Source: a virus
Lineage: Duplodnaviria > Caudoviricetes
Strand: one strand, 5' to 3'
Length of the DNA stretch: 64,000 nt
Virus record (IMG/VR): IMGVR_UViG_3300037424_000434
Coordinates: 1-64,000 of that record
The position numbers were made by a program, and so were the translations under genes. The notes under the pieces were generated by a model. That model was not told the DNA's origin and did not search any database. It saw nothing but the letters and a program-made list of their open reading frames with translations. Positions 32,872 through 41,805 of the stretch are shown here, piece by piece. The first letter of the stretch is position 1, and each line of letters begins with the position of its first letter.

Positions 32872-32917
32872 ACAGAAAACAAAAATATAAATAAAGATAA
32901 CCAAGGAGGTTATCTTT

Positions 32918-34207: not shown

Positions 34208-34609
34208 ATGTTAAAGAAGGCATTCAATATAGCAAATACATATCACTCAGATCAGGTGGATAAAGCTGGTCGGCCATACATCCTCCACCCCATTGCTGTT
34301 TATCTCAAAGCAATGACAGAAGACGAAAAAATTGTGGCGATACTCCATGATGTTGTCGAAGACACGATTTACACGGAAGAAATGCTTAGATCGGATTTCC
34401 CCGAGCATGTTGCCAATGCTGTAATGGCGGTGACGAAAAGAGAGGGAGAAAGTTACACTGAATTCATCTTGAGGGCCAAAGAAAACCCTATCGCAAGGGC
34501 TGTAAAGGGGTACGATATGGAGCACAACATGAGCTCTAGGGGTGTAGCCATTCCAGATAGTTTAATGGACCGATACGTCAAACACTATAAAATTCTGAAA
34601 GAGGATTGA
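34208..34609 (+). CDS. HD-domain alarmone hydrolase-like protein (Mesh1/SAH type)
   Basis: H..QVDKAG.PYILHP, AILHDVVED, D..HN. Confidence 0.88.
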   Translation: MLKKAFNIANTYHSDQVDKAGRPYILHPIAVYLKAMTEDEKIVAILHDVVEDTIYTEEMLRSDFPEHVANAVMAVTKREGESYTEFILRAKENPIARAVKGYDMEHNMSSRGVAIPDSLMDRYVKHYKILKED

Positions 34610-34878
34610 TCATGAAACTCAAATGTGTTGTATGTGGTGAAGTCGTGGAAAAGCGTCATGGAGCCCAATTCCGTAATCCCTCAAAGATTAATTCTGGGGG
34701 TGGACAAATTATGTTCCCGGTTGCCCATATTAATCCCCAAACAAATGATCCATGCCACGGATTTTACATGGAAGCTTTTGAAGAAGTTGAATAACTGTAT
34801 TTGTGTCACGGCCCCACGCGGGGTATGAGTAGTTAAAAATATATTAATATATCATAATATTTTCCGAAAGGTTATACC

Positions 34879-36105
34879 ATGACCCCAGTATTGATCGAAA
34901 GCATGTTGGACACTGATCTATACAAGCTTACTATGTGGCAAGCAATGTTCCACAAGTACACCTCAGCAAACACCAAATGGCGATTTAAAGCGCGTAAAGG
35001 AAATGGTTTCCCAAAAAACGGAACATCCGATACTGATTTCCTGTTGGCTCTAAACCAAAGCCTTGATCATCTATGCACTCTGGGGTTTCTCCCAGAAGAT
35101 CTCACATACCTACGTAACCTACGAACAAAAAATGGTACATTGTTGTTTAAGGATGATTTTCTGGAATATCTGCGATTGTTCAAATATAACAGGGAGTATA
35201 TACACGTCTCCGTTGCGGTGGATGGATCATTGGATATTGTCTTGGATGGTCCATGGATGGCTGTTACTGGGCTTGAGGTGCCTGTGCTTGCTATAGTATC
35301 CGAATTGCATAGCATGACCAAGTTTCAGGGTTCAACCCTTCCAGAAGGTAAATCAAGGCTGAAGGAGAAGATTTCTTTTCTGAAAACGAAAGACTCTATG
35401 GGTAAGTTGGCTGGATTTGCTTTTGCTGACTTTGGTACTCGTCGGAGATATAGCTTTAAGTGGCAAAACTATGTATTAGCCGAACTTGTTAAGGAGTTAT
35501 CTCTTGGTGTTCTGGTTGGCACCTCTAATGTATATTATGCCCGGAAGTATAATCTAACTCCAATTGGTACTATGGCTCATGAATTCATACAATGCTTTCA
35601 ACAGCTTGGTGGTCGGTTGGTCGATAGCCAGAAAGCCGCACTTGAGGCATGGGTGCAAGAATATAGAGGCGAATTAGGCATTGCTTTAACTGACACTGTT
35701 GGATTTGATGCTTTTCTGCGAGACTTTGACCTGTACTTTGCCAAACTCTTTGATGGGTGCCGTCATGACAGTGGTGACCCCCAAATATGGTGTGAAAAAC
35801 TTATTGCTCACTATCGAAAGATGGGTATTGACCCAAAAACCAAGACAGCGGTTTTTTCTGATGGGCTTGATTTCGAATTGGCTTATAACTTGTACTACAT
35901 GTTTCGTGACTTTATCAAGGTGAGTTTTGGTATTGGTACCAACCTCATGAATGATATGGGATGTGATGCAATCAGCATTGTGTTAAAGGTGGTCATGCTC
36001 AATGGTGCTCCGGTTGCAAAAGTATCAGATAGCAGGGGCAAGGGAATGTGTGAAGACCCCGAATATGAGTCTTACGTAAACAAAGTGTTTGGGATTGGAG
36101 GTTAG
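34879..36105 (+). CDS. pncB: nicotinate phosphoribosyltransferase
   Basis: DTDLYKLTM, DFGTRRR, GTSNV, GTMAHE, RHDSGDP, SDGL, FGIGTNL, AKVSD. Confidence 0.95.
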   Translation: MTPVLIESMLDTDLYKLTMWQAMFHKYTSANTKWRFKARKGNGFPKNGTSDTDFLLALNQSLDHLCTLGFLPEDLTYLRNLRTKNGTLLFKDDFLEYLRLFKYNREYIHVSVAVDGSLDIVLDGPWMAVTGLEVPVLAIVSELHSMTKFQGSTLPEGKSRLKEKISFLKTKDSMGKLAGFAFADFGTRRRYSFKWQNYVLAELVKELSLGVLVGTSNVYYARKYNLTPIGTMAHEFIQCFQQLGGRLVDSQKAALEAWVQEYRGELGIALTDTVGFDAFLRDFDLYFAKLFDGCRHDSGDPQIWCEKLIAHYRKMGIDPKTKTAVFSDGLDFELAYNLYYMFRDFIKVSFGIGTNLMNDMGCDAISIVLKVVMLNGAPVAKVSDSRGKGMCEDPEYESYVNKVFGIGG

Positions 36106-36107
36106 TC

Positions 36108-36305
36108 ATGAAAGCATTTGATGAGATGACCGAAAGTGACCTTGAGGCAATCGCGCGTCTTGCCATTAGTACCTCAACTGTGGTACAGTGGGTCTGTGAA
36201 GCATGTTTGCCTGACATTCACAAGGCATTCAATGCAGGACAACCAGAGCATCACAAATGTGAGGTCTGTTTTAAACCCCGAAAATGTTATGAGGTGTTAT
36301 GTTGA
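36108..36305 (+). CDS. small zinc-binding hypothetical protein
   Basis: VCEAC...CEVC...C. Confidence 0.55.
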   Translation: MKAFDEMTESDLEAIARLAISTSTVVQWVCEACLPDIHKAFNAGQPEHHKCEVCFKPRKCYEVLC

Positions 36306-36529
36306 GTGAATATACTGGTGGTGTTATTGATTCGTTTACTAAAGTGGTTGTGTGCAAGGATTATTTGGATGGTACTAGTCAGGTATTATTCAGAGGTCTA
36401 GCACAAGATGTACATCAATTCATAGAAGAAAATATGAGTGTTTATTGTGATGACATAATGAATGGTCAGCTTTTTGTAATGACTCTTGAGAATTTCACAA
36501 AAGACGCTACTAACGTAACATATAATTAG
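36299..36529 (+). CDS. hypothetical protein
   Basis: GAGG RBS, in the NAD operon. Confidence 0.5.
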
Positions 36530-36543
36530 GAGATCCCAAACAA

Positions 36544-36990
36544 ATGAACATTCCAATGTATCCAAGAAATCCATACTTGACAGTTGATGCTGTTGTACTA
36601 AGATATGCACCCGATGAGTTTGGATGGTTTGCGCCCGAAATTCTATTGGTGAAACGCAAACGCGAACCCATAGGATGGGCTTTGCCCGGTGGGTTTGTTG
36701 ATTACGGGGAATCAACCAAATCAGCGATTATCAGGGAACTTAAAGAGGAAACCGGTTTAACAGTGAAAAACACTCCCGAGCTACTTTGTGTTAGATCAGA
36801 TCCTGACCGTGACCCCAGACAACACACTGTATCAGTGGTGTATCTATTTAACTACTACGAGGGAGAACTGAAAACGAACGACCCCGACGAGGTTGACGAT
36901 ATTAAGTTTTTTCCCTTATCAGAGTTGCCTGATATGGTGTTTGACCACAAAGAAATTCTGAACCTCCATTTGGACTGGATTGGTAGATGA
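36544..36990 (+). CDS. Nudix hydrolase, ADP-ribose pyrophosphatase-like
   Basis: [13 protein letters not shown]...[16 protein letters not shown]. Confidence 0.92.
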
Positions 36991-37562
36991 AAATTTTAAT
37001 TTATGGCGGAGCATTTGATCCCGTACATATGGGGCACCTTTCAGTGGCGGATAATGCCCAAACAATGTTTGGATATGACAGGGTGTTGTTTGTCCCCTGT
37101 TATTCATCGATGTATGGGAAAAAAATGGCATCTTTTACGAGCAGATGGGAAATGTTAACCCGCGCTATCAATGATTATAAAAACCCAACATTTCTTGTCT
37201 CTGCCGCCGAAAGGGAACACCCAATAGAAGGAAAAACCTATACTCTCCTTGAATACTTAAAAGTGAAATTTCGGGACATAAACGCCCAAATGGACATATT
37301 GATTGGGTCTGATACCTTAAAACACATCCAGAACTGGTATGAGTTTGAGAAGATAAACGATGAATATGTGTTTATTGTGATGGAGAGATACGGATATCCC
37401 ATCGAAAGTAAGGTGTTAAAGAGAGCGTTCTATGCTTCCTTTCATAACGATTTCGAGATATCATCGACCACAACAAGACATCAACTAAAAACCGTTGGAA
37501 CCAGTTCATTGGTGCCACAAACCGTTGAAAAATATATCAAGGAAAACAACTTATATATCTAA
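36987..37562 (+). CDS. nadD: nicotinate-nucleotide adenylyltransferase
   Basis: [23 protein letters not shown]. Confidence 0.92.
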
Positions 37563-37638
37563 TGCACTGAATACAGATGTTATATTTGAAAAAACGGTAC
37601 TTTATATAAAGAAGTACCCAATATACGGAGGTACAAAA

Positions 37639-38487
37639 ATGCACAAAATTTCTACGGAATATGAGAAAATGTTTAACAATATCACCCAAACCTTTGCTGA
37701 ATACCTAACCAAGCATGATATCAGGACAGTGGTTCTTGGTGTTAGTGGTGGGGTAGATTCGGCGTTAATTGCTGCACTGGCGTTAAACACCAAACCATTG
37801 CTAAGTTTTCCCCTTAACATCATTGGTCGATCTATTACCATTGATAGCAATAAACCAGACGAGATTGCCCGTGCAAAGGCAATTGGTGAGTTGTTCTGTG
37901 ATGACTTCAAAGAACTTGACTTAACCTATGCTTATGGTAACCTGAAGTATTTGATTGAAGCACCAACATTTGTTTCGGTTAATGATAAATTAAATCAAAA
38001 TTTAACGGCAAAAGAGCTTGCTATTGCTAATGGGAACATAAAAGCACGGATTCGAATGATTCAATTATATCACCTTGCTGGTATAAATAAGGGCATGGTC
38101 TTAAGCACCGACAACCTCACAGAGCTTTACATGGGCTTCTGGACCTTGCACGGTGATGTGGGTGATTATGGTATGATCCAAAATCTCTGGAAGACCGAGG
38201 TTTATGGTCTTACTAAACATATAGCCGCAATTTATGACAAAACAGGTGCTAGGGAATGGGGTAGTGCCCTGAGAGCATGTGTAAGAGCCGTGCCAACAGA
38301 TGGTCTTGGTATTACTAATTCGGACCTTGACCAACTGGGAGCGAGGACATATGAAGATGTTGATAGTATCATAATCGACTATTTAAACACAAAACGCGGG
38401 AAACATCCGGTTATTGATCGATATGAAGCAACTCACTATAAGAGGACAAATCCAGTGCATATCCCTCGAAAGGAGATTTTATCATGA
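37639..38487 (+). CDS. nadE: NH3-dependent NAD+ synthetase
   Basis: LGVSGGVDS, GNIKARIRM, STDNLTE..MGF.TLHGD, KTEV, PTDGL; ATG 37639 with GGAGG RBS. Confidence 0.92.
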   Translation: MHKISTEYEKMFNNITQTFAEYLTKHDIRTVVLGVSGGVDSALIAALALNTKPLLSFPLNIIGRSITIDSNKPDEIARAKAIGELFCDDFKELDLTYAYGNLKYLIEAPTFVSVNDKLNQNLTAKELAIANGNIKARIRMIQLYHLAGINKGMVLSTDNLTELYMGFWTLHGDVGDYGMIQNLWKTEVYGLTKHIAAIYDKTGAREWGSALRACVRAVPTDGLGITNSDLDQLGARTYEDVDSIIIDYLNTKRGKHPVIDRYEATHYKRTNPVHIPRKEILS

Positions 38488-39005
38488 AAAAAGTATTAAT
38501 TGTTGTTGATATGCTTAACGATTTTATTGACAAAGATGGGGTGCTTTCGTTGGGTCAATCAGGTTTTGATATTGTACCGGTTATCGCTAGGAAAGTTTAT
38601 CTGGCAAGACGACAAGGAGACATGGTTCTGTACCTCAATGACGCTCATGATATTAACGACAAGGAGTTCAATAGATTTCCCTCCCATGCGGTTGTGGGTA
38701 CATGGGGGGCAGAGGTTATCCCGGAACTAACGCCGGTGGCGGGAGATATCATTATACCCAAAAAACGGTATAGCGGATTCTTTGGAACATGTCTACAGGA
38801 AACACTATCAACAGAAAACCCCGATATCATTGAGGTGTGTGGATGTTGCACAAGCATTTGTGTGGCAGGTACTATCGAAGAACTCGCAAACAGGGATTAT
38901 ACAGTGGTTGTTGACAGAAAAGCAGTTGCTGACTTTGATCAAGATGCGCACGAATTCTTTTTAGAATACCAATTTCCTCGTATCTTTGGAATTAATGTTC
39001 TATAA
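38484..39005 (+). CDS. pncA: nicotinamidase (cysteine hydrolase)
   Basis: VVDMLNDF, metal ligands D-x-H and H (DAH...PSHA), KKRYSGF, GCCTSICV. Confidence 0.82.
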   Translation: MKKVLIVVDMLNDFIDKDGVLSLGQSGFDIVPVIARKVYLARRQGDMVLYLNDAHDINDKEFNRFPSHAVVGTWGAEVIPELTPVAGDIIIPKKRYSGFFGTCLQETLSTENPDIIEVCGCCTSICVAGTIEELANRDYTVVVDRKAVADFDQDAHEFFLEYQFPRIFGINVL

Positions 39006-39135
39006 GATTGTCGATGAAATCGAAGATTAATACATTATAATCACACTTTCTCTTTGATTAGGGGAGGTGTACTTATATATACAGAAAGGAACAGTAAACA
39101 AAAAAATACGGCCACTAGTGGTTGTCGGAGATTAA

Positions 39136-40368
39136 ATGACTGATCTAGAACAGAATATAATGAATGATGTTATGGAAAATCCTGATATAGGTAGACGTAA
39201 CTTATCAAGAAAATATGGGGTTTCTGAGAAAAAAATCAGACCCATCCTCAAGAGATGTAAATTGATATTACAAGAACAACGAGAGGAAATTGACGACCCG
39301 GACGAACGGTTAGTGGTATATCTCGCTAAACTAGAAAAACAAAAACAACGACTGATGGACCAACAACGGATTGAACGCAAGATCCGCAACCAAATAAGAG
39401 TTGACAATTCCTTGGCAGACTATGGTGCCGAGATATTAAAGATATTTAAGGAAAGAGAGGTAAACTATACTCTCCCGGTACATCAAGCCAACGACGATGT
39501 AGTTGGTATTTTCCAGATATCAGACACACATTTTAATGAACTAATAAACATTACAGGCAATCAATATGACTTTAAAATCGCAGCAAGGCGGTTACAGAAG
39601 TATGTGAATGTGGCAAAAAAACAATTCAAAACCCATAATATTCAAAAGGTTGTTGTTGCAATGACCGGGGATCTATTAAACTCTGATAGACGATTAGACG
39701 AATTGCTCAACATGGCGACCAACCGGGCAAAAGCAACATCATTGTCGGCGATATTACTGGAACAAGTAATAGTGGATTTGGCCCAAGACTTTGAGGTTAC
39801 GTTGACCTATGTTACCGGGAACGAGTCTCGTGCTGGAGAGTATATGGGTACAACAGAAATTATGATTTCTGACAACTATGATGTAACCATTTTTGAAATG
39901 TTAAAACTGATGTTCAGGGACACGAATGTAAATTTTATCGAAGGATCTGTTGGAGAAAAGGTTGTTCAAATAAAAAACAAAAATGTGTTATTGATCCATG
40001 GACATCAAATGAAAGGAAGTATATCAAAACAATCACAACAAATAAAAGGAAAATACTCCGATCTAAACATTAAAATCGATTATATATTGTTTGGCCATAT
40101 TCACGAATGTTTGATCGCTGATTTTTATGCTCGAAGTTCATCCCTGTGTGGTGCCAATGCATACTCCAACAATCTACTTCAACTGACATCAAGAGCCTCA
40201 CAAAATATCCACTTCGTATCAAACACATCTATTAACTCAATGAAAATCGATCTTCAGGAATATGAGGAGTATGAGGGATACGATATTGACGCTTCGTTGG
40301 AGGCATATAACGCCAAAAGCAGTGAAAAGGGTAAAGATAACACTTTCATTGTTGTTAACATTTTATGA
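39136..40368 (+). CDS. HTH + coiled coil + metallophosphoesterase/nuclease
   Basis: ISDTH, GDLL, GNE, HGH, FGHIH. Confidence 0.75.
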   Translation: MTDLEQNIMNDVMENPDIGRRNLSRKYGVSEKKIRPILKRCKLILQEQREEIDDPDERLVVYLAKLEKQKQRLMDQQRIERKIRNQIRVDNSLADYGAEILKIFKEREVNYTLPVHQANDDVVGIFQISDTHFNELINITGNQYDFKIAARRLQKYVNVAKKQFKTHNIQKVVVAMTGDLLNSDRRLDELLNMATNRAKATSLSAILLEQVIVDLAQDFEVTLTYVTGNESRAGEYMGTTEIMISDNYDVTIFEMLKLMFRDTNVNFIEGSVGEKVVQIKNKNVLLIHGHQMKGSISKQSQQIKGKYSDLNIKIDYILFGHIHECLIADFYARSSSLCGANAYSNNLLQLTSRASQNIHFVSNTSINSMKIDLQEYEEYEGYDIDASLEAYNAKSSEKGKDNTFIVVNIL

Positions 40369-40482: not shown

Positions 40483-41805
40483 ATGATGTACGAAATTAAC
40501 GGAAAATATACTAATGCCAAGGTGATGATCGATGATTTAGATGCGTCGGCAGTGAGTCAGATAGTCGAAATGGTAAACAACCAATGTTTCACTAATCCGA
40601 TAGCAATCATGCCCGATGCCCACGCTGGCAAGGGATGTGTTGTAGGTTTTACAATGGAATTATCGGACAAATTGATACCAAATATCATAGGTAGCGATAT
40701 TGGATGTGGTATGCTGTCGTTCAATGTCGGAAGTAACCTATTGTCCAATGAAAAGATGCCATTGTTGGATGAGGCTATTCGTGAGCGGATCCCATTTGGT
40801 GCCTCTGCTAGGGGCAAAATGTCCAAAGATGCCATGTTTGACTGGAAATCCATCAACGATGAACTACGAAAACTCTGTATGGAATACAACACTCGATACA
40901 ACATGTCAATGGCACCTGTTGTTATGGATACGGAAAAGTTACGCGCCATCTTTGATCGAGTAGGATGTGACTATCATAGGGGGATGTTATCTATAGGTTC
41001 ATTGGGGGGCGGCAACCATTTCATTGAGATTGGTAAAGACGAAAACAATGACTATTGGGTAACTATTCATTCCGGTTCGCGTAACTTTGGAAAATGTATT
41101 GCTGAATATTGGCAAAAGATCGCCCATAAGAACATGAACGAGCCTGCTTTATCAAAGACTGATTATGTCGAATTCGTTAAGGCAAATTTCGATAAAATGA
41201 AATGGCAAGACGAAATAGCAAAATACGAGACGTTAGTGGGCGGCAAATCTCGTGTGGGGAAAGGAACCGAATATCTTGAGGGCAAAGATGTTTATGGGTA
41301 TTTGGTTGATATGTTTGTTGCTCAGAAGTACGCCGAGATGAGCCGGTACGTCATGTCATGCGAATTAGTGAACTCTATCCGTGTGGTTTCTGACACGTTT
41401 AAGGGTGTAGTCCAGTGTATTGAAACTGTACACAACTTTGTAGACTTCAAAGACTGGATTATTCGTAAAGGGGCTATTCGTTCATACAAAGGGGAGTTGA
41501 TGATAATCCCCTTCAACATGGAAGATGGGTTGTTGATAGTCGAAGGCAAGTCCAACAACGACTGGAACAACTCAGCGCCTCATGGTGCCGGTCGATTATT
41601 TTCCCGATCTGCGGCAAAAGCCAACCTCGATCTTGATATGGCAACAAAATCAATGAAAGACAATGGTATATATTCTTCGTCCATTCCCTTAGATGAAGTC
41701 AAGGGTGCATATAAGCCTTGTGAAGTCATTGAAGCTTGTATTGAACCAACAGCAACCATCATCCACAGAATAAAACCCGTCATGAACCTGAAGGATGGAC
41801 AGTGA
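40483..41805 (+). CDS. rtcB: RNA ligase RtcB
   Basis: MPDAHAGKG, DIGCG, GGGNHF.E, HSGSR, HN, RKGA, HGAGR. Confidence 0.95.
   Translation: MMYEINGKYTNAKVMIDDLDASAVSQIVEMVNNQCFTNPIAIMPDAHAGKGCVVGFTMELSDKLIPNIIGSDIGCGMLSFNVGSNLLSNEKMPLLDEAIRERIPFGASARGKMSKDAMFDWKSINDELRKLCMEYNTRYNMSMAPVVMDTEKLRAIFDRVGCDYHRGMLSIGSLGGGNHFIEIGKDENNDYWVTIHSGSRNFGKCIAEYWQKIAHKNMNEPALSKTDYVEFVKANFDKMKWQDEIAKYETLVGGKSRVGKGTEYLEGKDVYGYLVDMFVAQKYAEMSRYVMSCELVNSIRVVSDTFKGVVQCIETVHNFVDFKDWIIRKGAIRSYKGELMIIPFNMEDGLLIVEGKSNNDWNNSAPHGAGRLFSRSAAKANLDLDMATKSMKDNGIYSSSIPLDEVKGAYKPCEVIEACIEPTATIIHRIKPVMNLKDGQ

Follow-up and report, generated by a model that had tools for sequence, protein, structure and literature searches.

We analysed a 64-kb window consisting of the first 64 kb of the 235,765-bp IMG/VR virus record IMGVR_UViG_3300037424_000434, which belongs to an uncultured sediment phage and has a CheckV completeness of 98%. 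Between positions 34879 and 39005 of the window, seven open reading frames (ORFs), all on the + strand, encode PncB, two small orphan proteins, a Nudix hydrolase, NadD, NadE and PncA. This cluster is quite probably a working, phage-resident operon that would maintain nicotinamide adenine dinucleotide (NAD+) through the classical four-step deamidating salvage of nicotinamide. A preliminary description of the window had listed pncB, Nudix, nadD, nadE and pncA as co-oriented genes with intact catalytic motifs. All five were indeed found, whereas the two small ORFs between pncB and the Nudix gene had been missed. The features are as follows.

34879..36105, + strand: pncB, nicotinate phosphoribosyltransferase of the proteobacterial/PncB type, 408 aa (TIGR01514, NF003704, Pfam, PDB)
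36108..36305, + strand: orfA, Cys-rich, 65 aa, no family assigned (no Pfam, NCBIfam or PHROG match; counterpart in the related contig L002)
36299..36529, + strand: orfB, orphan, 76 aa, coding status uncertain (no family match, no homologue in the fetched loci)
36544..36990, + strand: Nudix hydrolase, 148 aa, probably an ADP-ribose pyrophosphatase (PF00293, NCBIfam, PDB)
36987..37562, + strand: nadD, nicotinate-mononucleotide adenylyltransferase, 191 aa (TIGR00482, 1KAM, motifs)
37639..38487, + strand: nadE, single-domain NAD+ synthetase of the NH3-dependent type, 282 aa (TIGR00552, PDB, SGGVDS)
38484..39005, + strand: pncA, short nicotinamidase of the isochorismatase family, 173 aa (PF00857, PDB, invariant residues)
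39043..39070, + strand: terminator-like hairpin, possible 3′ end of the unit (consensus scan; pattern match only)

Successive junctions in the cluster measure +2, –7, +14, –4, +76 and –4 nucleotides. The start of nadD thus overlaps the stop of the Nudix gene by 4 nucleotides, and the start of pncA overlaps the stop of nadE by the same length. Hairpin-type and promoter-type sites detected in the region by consensus scanning were not clearly above shuffled expectation. A hairpin in the 76-nucleotide spacer between nadD and nadE was not significant (z = –1.35). The T4-type late-promoter TATAAATA was not found just upstream of pncB, the nearest occurrences being at 32886 and at 38082, within nadE.

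The enzymes were then identified from family models, structure matches and motifs. PncB scored 415 bits with TIGR01514 (cut-off 269) and 489 bits with NF003704, and it contains the Pfam domains NAPRTase_N and NAPRTase. It matched the structure of Pseudomonas PncB2 (PDB 1YIR, E=1e-115). Motifs FGTRR (185–189) and GTMAHE (230–235) are present, with H234 invariant in our alignment A1. By these matches, the only NAPRTase-family gene of the phage is assigned to the PncB class and not to Nampt. NadD scored 126.5 bits with TIGR00482 (cut-off 112.45). Its top PDB match was the nicotinate mononucleotide (NaMN) adenylyltransferase of B. subtilis (1KAM, E=3e-23), and it carries the HxGH motif (segment 8–17) as well as the ISSTxxR motif in the form ISSTTTR (158–164). 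NadE scored 116 bits with TIGR00552 (cut-off 63.65) and has the SGGVDS PP-loop at residues 36–41. It is a single-domain protein lacking the glutaminase domain, and its PDB matches are mainly NH3-dependent synthetases. Overall, the family assignments of PncB, NadD and NadE exceed the curated cut-offs, and all catalytic motifs are intact.

The longest nadE ORF begins at a TTG codon at 37495. This start was discarded, since it would overlap nadD by 68 nucleotides and since the Pfam match begins only about 60 residues into that ORF. Because the ATG at 37639 sits behind a GGAGG box, because of the late onset of the Pfam match, and because the resulting protein aligns from residue 1 with its L002 homologue (61% identity over the full length), the start was set at ATG 37639, which most likely gives a protein of 282 aa.

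The product of the last gene has the isochorismatase fold (PF00857, 114.7 bits). The RutB and biuret-hydrolase models outscored the E. coli PncA model on this protein, so that general models alone do not settle the assignment. However, its PDB matches include the nicotinamidases 3O90, 3S2S and 1ILW. In an alignment of 25 homologues, D9, K93 and C126 were invariant, as were D53, H55 and H68. From the solved nicotinamidases, we take the former three residues to be the catalytic triad and the latter three to be the metal site. On the Desulfosarcina widdelii chromosome, a 50%-identical homologue overlaps the start of pncB, in the classic pncA-pncB arrangement. Structure matches, invariant residues and this genomic context support the assignment of the last gene as a putative nicotinamidase. 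The preliminary description had seen in PncA, PncB, NadD and NadE a complete deamidating route from nicotinamide to NAD+, and this holds as far as sequence can tell.

The Nudix gene is the sole one in the phage genome. Its product scored 93.8 bits with PF00293, and the box GX5EX7REUXEEXGU is intact at positions 50–72 (G50–L72). An intact Nudix box was tied to ADP-ribose (ADPR) pyrophosphatase activity by Rodionov et al. (PMC2330246). Among NCBIfam models, the best matches were to the Nudix portion of NadM-Nudix enzymes and to NtrR, a repressor that responds to ADPR. The PDB matches include 2FML/EF2700 (NrtR), 3GZ5 (NrtR) and the Francisella NadM-Nudix 2QJT. Since the catalytic box is intact, unlike that of most NrtR proteins, and a DNA-binding domain is absent, the protein should be an enzyme and not a repressor, and ADPR pyrophosphatase is its most likely activity. 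The earlier naming of the gene as an ADP-ribose Nudix agrees with this grouping by family and structure matches. It is nevertheless conceivable, if unlikely, that the enzyme does not recycle ADPR at all and would instead trim NAD(H) or nicotinate adenine dinucleotide (NaAD), decap NAD-RNA or degrade an ADPR-derived immune signal. Indeed, substrate specificity in the Nudix family is notoriously hard to infer from sequence, the PDB entry ranking first (2YYH) bears an 8-oxo-dGTPase domain label, and two comparative-genomics papers (Iyer et al.) present the Nudix domain of NadM as an NAD+ cleaver regulating the NAD+ level. In contrast, among matches of known biology, those to ADPR pyrophosphatase domains and to the ADPR-binding NrtR rank best, the protein scores about 20 bits less with the NudC, RppH and MutT models, and the translational coupling of the gene to nadD mirrors the NadM-Nudix fusion.

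From these assignments the following scheme can be proposed. PncA would hydrolyse nicotinamide to nicotinate and NH3. PncB would combine nicotinate with phosphoribosyl pyrophosphate (PRPP), with the participation of ATP, to yield NaMN. NadD would then use ATP to convert NaMN to NaAD, and NadE would form NAD+ from NaAD, ATP and NH3. Per NAD+, the route would consume one PRPP and about three ATP. Formally, NadE would use as much NH3 as PncA sets free. In parallel, the Nudix enzyme would split free ADPR into AMP and ribose-5-phosphate, the latter being returned to PRPP by the host only. Such an ADPR to ribose-5-phosphate to PRPP rationale was earlier proposed for bacteria (PMC2330246). In this way the operon would keep the NAD+ pool up during infection, serving the NAD+-dependent DNA ligase (LigA) of the phage, and it would buffer NAD+ breakdown by host NADases.

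In order to see how this route fits with the other genes of the phage, the complete genome was searched for NAD-related functions. PRPP synthetase and the Prs-like Adps were searched for genome-wide with PF13793 and PF14572, with zero matches, which places the phage outside NARP1, the first of the NAD+ reconstitution pathways (NARPs) described in phages. In the absence of a PRPP synthetase, PRPP must come from the host; the preliminary description had left the choice between the host and another part of the genome. The sole PF04095 match in the genome is the PncB-class enzyme. There is accordingly no second NAPRTase or Nampt, as NARP1 or NARP2 would have. No PF04973 match, hence no PnuC, was detected in the genome, and the only cytidylyltransferase-like gene is nadD, present in a single copy, so that the phage does not belong to NARP3 either. 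Genome searches for PncC, Tpt1 and a macro domain found none of them. The four-enzyme cluster is therefore the only NAD route detected in the genome. A full-length LigA with adenylation, OB, HhH and BRCT domains is encoded outside the window (G000:C1:214659-216470). The ATP-dependent ligase domain (PF01068) was not detected anywhere in this T4-like genome. LigA being the only ligase detected, replication of the phage probably consumes NAD+ directly.

Several lines of evidence indicate that the cluster genes reside in the phage. On the same strand, they are preceded by a phage DNA polymerase gene (phrog_262) and a thymidylate-kinase-like gene lies nearby; a phage exonuclease gene (phrog_284) and rtcB follow. 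The G+C content of the cluster is 0.41, as compared to 0.405 for the DNA polymerase gene. The closest bacterial PncB proteins are only about 50% identical, whereas PncB is 71% identical in two phage contigs, L002 (IMG/VR, 51 kb) and L176/L177 (a 217-kb ENA scaffold). The gene order PncB-x-Nudix-NadD-NadE-PncA is common to the window, L002 and L176/L177. In a FastTree phylogeny of 162 PncB sequences, the window protein belongs to a clade of 12 tips (local support 95), which comprises 10 viral rows, one Desulfobacterales metagenome-assembled genome (MAG) contig and the window itself. This clade is nested within a 47-tip group containing 45 viral rows. The tree is a quick one and its sampling is biased toward the query; it therefore shows only long residence in phages and does not designate a donor. 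We considered it very improbable that the cluster is host DNA or an assembly artefact, that is, a bacterial NAD operon misjoined to a viral contig or a recent passenger without a role. Comparable bacterial clusters do exist, in Burkholderiales (NrtR beside pncA-pncB-nadE-nadM/Nudix) and in Kangiellaceae (Nudix-nadD divergent from pncA-pncB-nadE), and several database "phage" matches to PncB are really host sequence. However, the phage genes flanking the cluster on both sides, the uniform G+C content, the more closely related phage PncB proteins with their kept gene order and the viral PncB clade all argue for phage residence, as does the short NH3-type NadE, which differs from the enzymes of about 570 aa in similar bacterial operons.

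Comparison with L002 and L176 also showed which parts of the module vary. NadD is the most divergent module protein (34–42% identity, as compared to 71% for PncB, 56–61% for NadE and 58–68% for PncA) and looks like a labile or replaceable slot (36987–37562). The content of the interval between pncB and the Nudix gene differs as well, with orfA and orfB in the window (36108–36529), orfA alone in L002 (L002:11237-11368) and a gene for a 316-aa DUF723 endonuclease-like protein in L176 (L176:4773-5723). OrfA is 41% identical to the ORF in the matching slot of L002, and orfB has a G+C content of 0.33 as compared to 0.41 for the cluster. Neither orfA nor orfB gave any match in Pfam, NCBIfam or PHROG. 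As for cellular relatives, the closest named homologues of the short PncA come from Desulfobacteraceae and Desulfosarcina (about 50% identity; P0037, P0079, P0083, P0111), and the nearest non-viral PncB is that of a Desulfobacterales MAG. These nearest homologues hint at a sulfate reducer of the sediment as a possible host. The sequencing runs listed for the DNA are three sediment metagenomes, with no RNA run among them. The MAG contig in question (L095, CAZOEW010000131.1) is 11 kb long; its PncB is nested in the viral clade, and it may be a mis-binned phage.

We next asked how widely the module recurs. A megablast search of the cluster against GenBank phages gave zero matches. As a single-sequence scan of IMG/VR yielded just two loci, the scan was repeated with alignment A1, and more than 552 PncB relatives were recovered. 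Among 89 viral or phage-database loci examined, five gene types lay within 10 kb of pncB in 5, four in 13 and three in 24. When 40 PncB-bearing viral records were searched over their whole length, 33 had NadE, 19 a NadD-like protein and 21 an isochorismatase, and all four pathway enzymes were present in about 10 of these IMG/VR records. Several records in this set represent complete, terminally repeated genomes or carry a T4-type capsid gene. The preliminary description had proposed such a survey of co-occurrence across phage genomes, and these counts show that the gene set does recur. The commonest phage combination was PncB, NadE and PncA without NadD (16 of the 89 loci, L003–L094). In such loci, the route may be completed by the host NadD, or some of the NadE enzymes may act on NaMN, like the Francisella nicotinamide mononucleotide (NMN) synthetase. 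Within the 50,697 GenBank phage records, the genes are rare overall, with PncB in 14 (some with host flank), PncA in 12 and NadE in 30, and PHROGs has no dedicated PncB or NadD family. Two apparent phage cases, which gave the best GenBank phage matches to PncB, were rejected. The PncB match in "Acinetobacter phage MD-2021a" (L004, CAKLQH020000008.1) lies in a bacterial chromosome, together with ribH, nusB, thiL and phoBR. That in Moraxella phage Mcat17 (L005, KR093641.1) lies beyond the annotated attR.

Among cultured jumbo phages, similar clusters were found in two annotations. Bacillus phage G carries co-oriented genes for a Nudix protein (gp273), an isochorismatase (gp275), a NAPRTase (gp277), a NaMN adenylyltransferase (gp281) and an NAD synthetase (gp283). 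Genes 368–377 of Sinorhizobium phage Phosso include NadE, PncB, a MutT-like Nudix protein, an adenylyltransferase and a hydrolase in one block. Both clusters thus encode the same five enzyme types as the window, co-oriented within about 6–7 kb. They differ by their gene order and by the unrelated small genes interspersed, and that of phage G also includes a KptA/Tpt1 gene. The Phosso PncB is about 32% identical to that of the window, and tblastn with the window PncB did not find the NAPRTase of phage G. Given the differing order and the distant proteins, the G and Phosso clusters may have been assembled independently.

Clusters of this kind are also known from metagenomes. Li et al. (Microbiome 2024, PMC11662467) described 174 "NAD-jumbo phages" with salvage or Preiss-Handler pathways and many NAD+-consuming enzymes. 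With 235,765 bp and with pncB, nadD and nadE within 4.1 kb, the present genome falls into their Preiss-Handler class. As in their clusters (e.g. Kuafu_71 pncB-nadD-nadE), PncB, NadD and NadE are phage-encoded and clustered in a genome of more than 200 kb. The same study mentions phage pncA and suggests that such genes might play a counter-defence role. In the window, by contrast, the nicotinamidase and the ADPR-type Nudix enzyme belong to the same tight operon, the virus is a T4-like sediment virus and not a gut phage of Bacteroidota, and the order PncB-Nudix-NadD-NadE-PncA is specific to its lineage. A 2026 phage paper reported pncB, nadD and nadE as auxiliary genes, with a similar speculation on counter-defence, and in Iyer et al. 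(2021, 2022) the only phage NAD genes described are NadV, NadM and NadR. The operon is real and coherent, but as a discovery it adds little: cultured jumbo phages have annotated versions of its gene set, a 2024 study reported the set from metagenomes, and it is widespread in IMG/VR.

The deamidating route can further be set against the NARPs. NARP1 and NARP2 were defined by Osterman et al. (bioRxiv 10.1101/2024.02.11.579819), who do not mention the deamidating route, and NARP3 is the PnuC and NadR pathway reported in 2026 (PMC13464706). The preliminary description had called the present cluster a third route. That rank could not be maintained, because NARP3 already occupies it, because Preiss-Handler clusters were published in 2024 and because phages G and Phosso are annotated with the five enzymes. 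NARP2 (Nampt and Nmnat, as in Vibrio phage KVP40) resembles the window route in taking up nicotinamide and host PRPP and in delivering NAD+. In NadM of the KVP40 type, adenylyltransferase and Nudix domain form one protein, much as the Nudix gene and nadD are coupled in the window. However, NARP2 proceeds in two amidated steps via NMN, and no Nampt is present here; the window route would need four steps, passing through nicotinate, NaMN and NaAD before the amide is restored. Experiments have established that NARP2 overcomes defences, whereas for the window route such an effect is only a possibility. NARP1 (Adps and Namat) and NARP3 likewise restore NAD+ in phages. The former rebuilds NAD+ directly from ADPR via ADP-ribose pyrophosphate (ADPR-PP) and the latter imports nicotinamide riboside, while neither the Prs-like Adps nor PnuC was detected here. 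Finally, the NrtR-regulated operons of bacteria (PMC2330246) also link PncA, PncB and NadE to an ADP-ribose-recognising protein of the Nudix family. The phage Nudix protein is distinguished by being short and stand-alone, with an intact box and no DNA-binding domain; in addition, NadE is of the NH3 type and PncA is only 173 aa long.

Some observations weigh against the view that the cluster is a working operon for NAD+ maintenance. The sigma-70 promoter scan was at chance, with 28 sites as compared to 26.4 expected in shuffled sequence. Sequence does not reveal whether NadD prefers NaMN or NMN, nor which substrate the Nudix enzyme uses. The product released by LigA is NMN and not nicotinamide. 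Since the phage has no PncC, the ligase cycle alone does not explain PncA and PncB, and LigA is present in only 14 of the 40 other PncB-bearing viral records. Moreover, most hosts probably have the pathway already, so that the gain from a phage copy is assumed. If NAD+ maintenance is nevertheless retained as the function, the pressure that selected it can be understood in two ways. One possibility, which we regard as real without holding it to be the probable one, is a dedicated counter-defence, by which the module would act as a fourth NAD+ reconstitution pathway against Thoeris, DSR, SIR2-HerA, SEFIR and RES-type systems, making NAD+ from nicotinamide while the Nudix enzyme recycles ADPR. 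This overlaps with the NAD+-maintenance reading and differs from it only in what the module was selected for. NARP1, NARP2 and NARP3 show that phage NAD+ synthesis overcomes such defences; the phage has none of the three, so that the deamidating route would fill the same niche. Since the route needs only nicotinamide and PRPP, what becomes of the ADPR moiety would not matter to it, as in the case of NARP2. RtcB and a SpoT-like HD hydrolase nearby lend the region a flavour of repair and counter-defence, and the PncB lineage in which the module persists is mostly viral. On the other hand, we found no experiment on the PncA-PncB-NadD-NadE route in phages in the searchable literature. With four enzymes, about three ATP and a host PRPP for each NAD+, it would run more slowly than NARP1 and at a higher cost. 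Nor is the module constant in composition, NadD and isochorismatase each being found in only about half of the PncB-bearing records (19 and 21 of 40), a pattern closer to adjustable metabolism than to an invariant tool against defences.

The module could equally be plain auxiliary metabolism, supplying NAD+ to a large phage that uses it stoichiometrically through LigA after host shut-off, with no special part for defences; this too we consider possible, while stopping short of calling it likely. The NAD+-dependent enzyme is the sole DNA ligase detected, and the neighbours are replication and nucleotide genes (DNA polymerase, thymidylate-kinase-like protein, exonuclease). Moreover, NAD-jumbo phages are rich in NAD+-consuming enzymes (PMC11662467), and the NAD cluster of phage G holds the NAD+-consuming KptA/Tpt1. 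Against this stand the presence of LigA in only 14 of the 40 other records and the NMN product of the ligase, whose cycle needs no PncA or PncB. No Tpt1 or macro-domain NAD+ consumer was found in the genome, and an ADPR-type Nudix enzyme with a nicotinamidase better fits the recycling of NADase or ADP-ribosyltransferase products. In short, PncA and the putative ADPR-type Nudix favour such recycling, while LigA as the only ligase detected and the variable composition favour plain supply. Selection through NADase defences and ordinary supply of a ligase are not decidable from sequence, and they are not mutually exclusive.

NAD+ lies at the centre of the conflict between phages and bacterial immune systems, and three phage pathways restoring it are experimentally proven, the deamidating route not being among them. 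The broader proposal that PncA-PncB-NadD-NadE, with or without Nudix, constitutes a fourth, widespread phage NAD+ reconstitution pathway defeating NADase defences is advanced here only tentatively, and we tend to doubt it. If it were true, the route, needing only nicotinamide and PRPP, might beat defences that spoil the ADPR moiety and thereby block NARP1. In addition, PncA could supply its NH3 to the adjoining NH3-dependent NadE, and the deamidated intermediates would avoid NMN. Being compact, complete and the only NAD route of its genome, the operon is a handy candidate for a counter-defence test, as are the genes of phages G and Phosso.

The genes around the operon deserve mention. Upstream, at 34208–34609 (+), a 133-aa HD-domain protein (TIGR00691, E=6e-19; phrog_990) resembles the hydrolase region at the N terminus of RelA/SpoT. 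Its L002 counterpart shares 68% identity, and L017, L018, L022 and L070 encode homologues within 10 kb of pncB. This small protein might hydrolyse alarmones or, by analogy with MESH1, act as an NADP(H) phosphatase that supplies the NAD pool. The gap between the HD gene and pncB contains a 60-aa ORF (34612–34794, +) whose product has a CxxC motif. It had no family match but shows weak similarity (36% identity, E=1e-5) to an ORF that lies downstream of pncA in L176. After the operon, and on the same strand, come the exonuclease-like metallophosphoesterase gene (39136–40368, phrog_284) and the gene for RtcB RNA ligase (40483–41805). RtcB is also encoded near pncB in L002, L023, L040 and L065, and in phage G the NAD-dependent KptA/Tpt1 gene lies within the NAD cluster. 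These cases point to NAD salvage and RNA-repair genes as a recurring neighbourhood.

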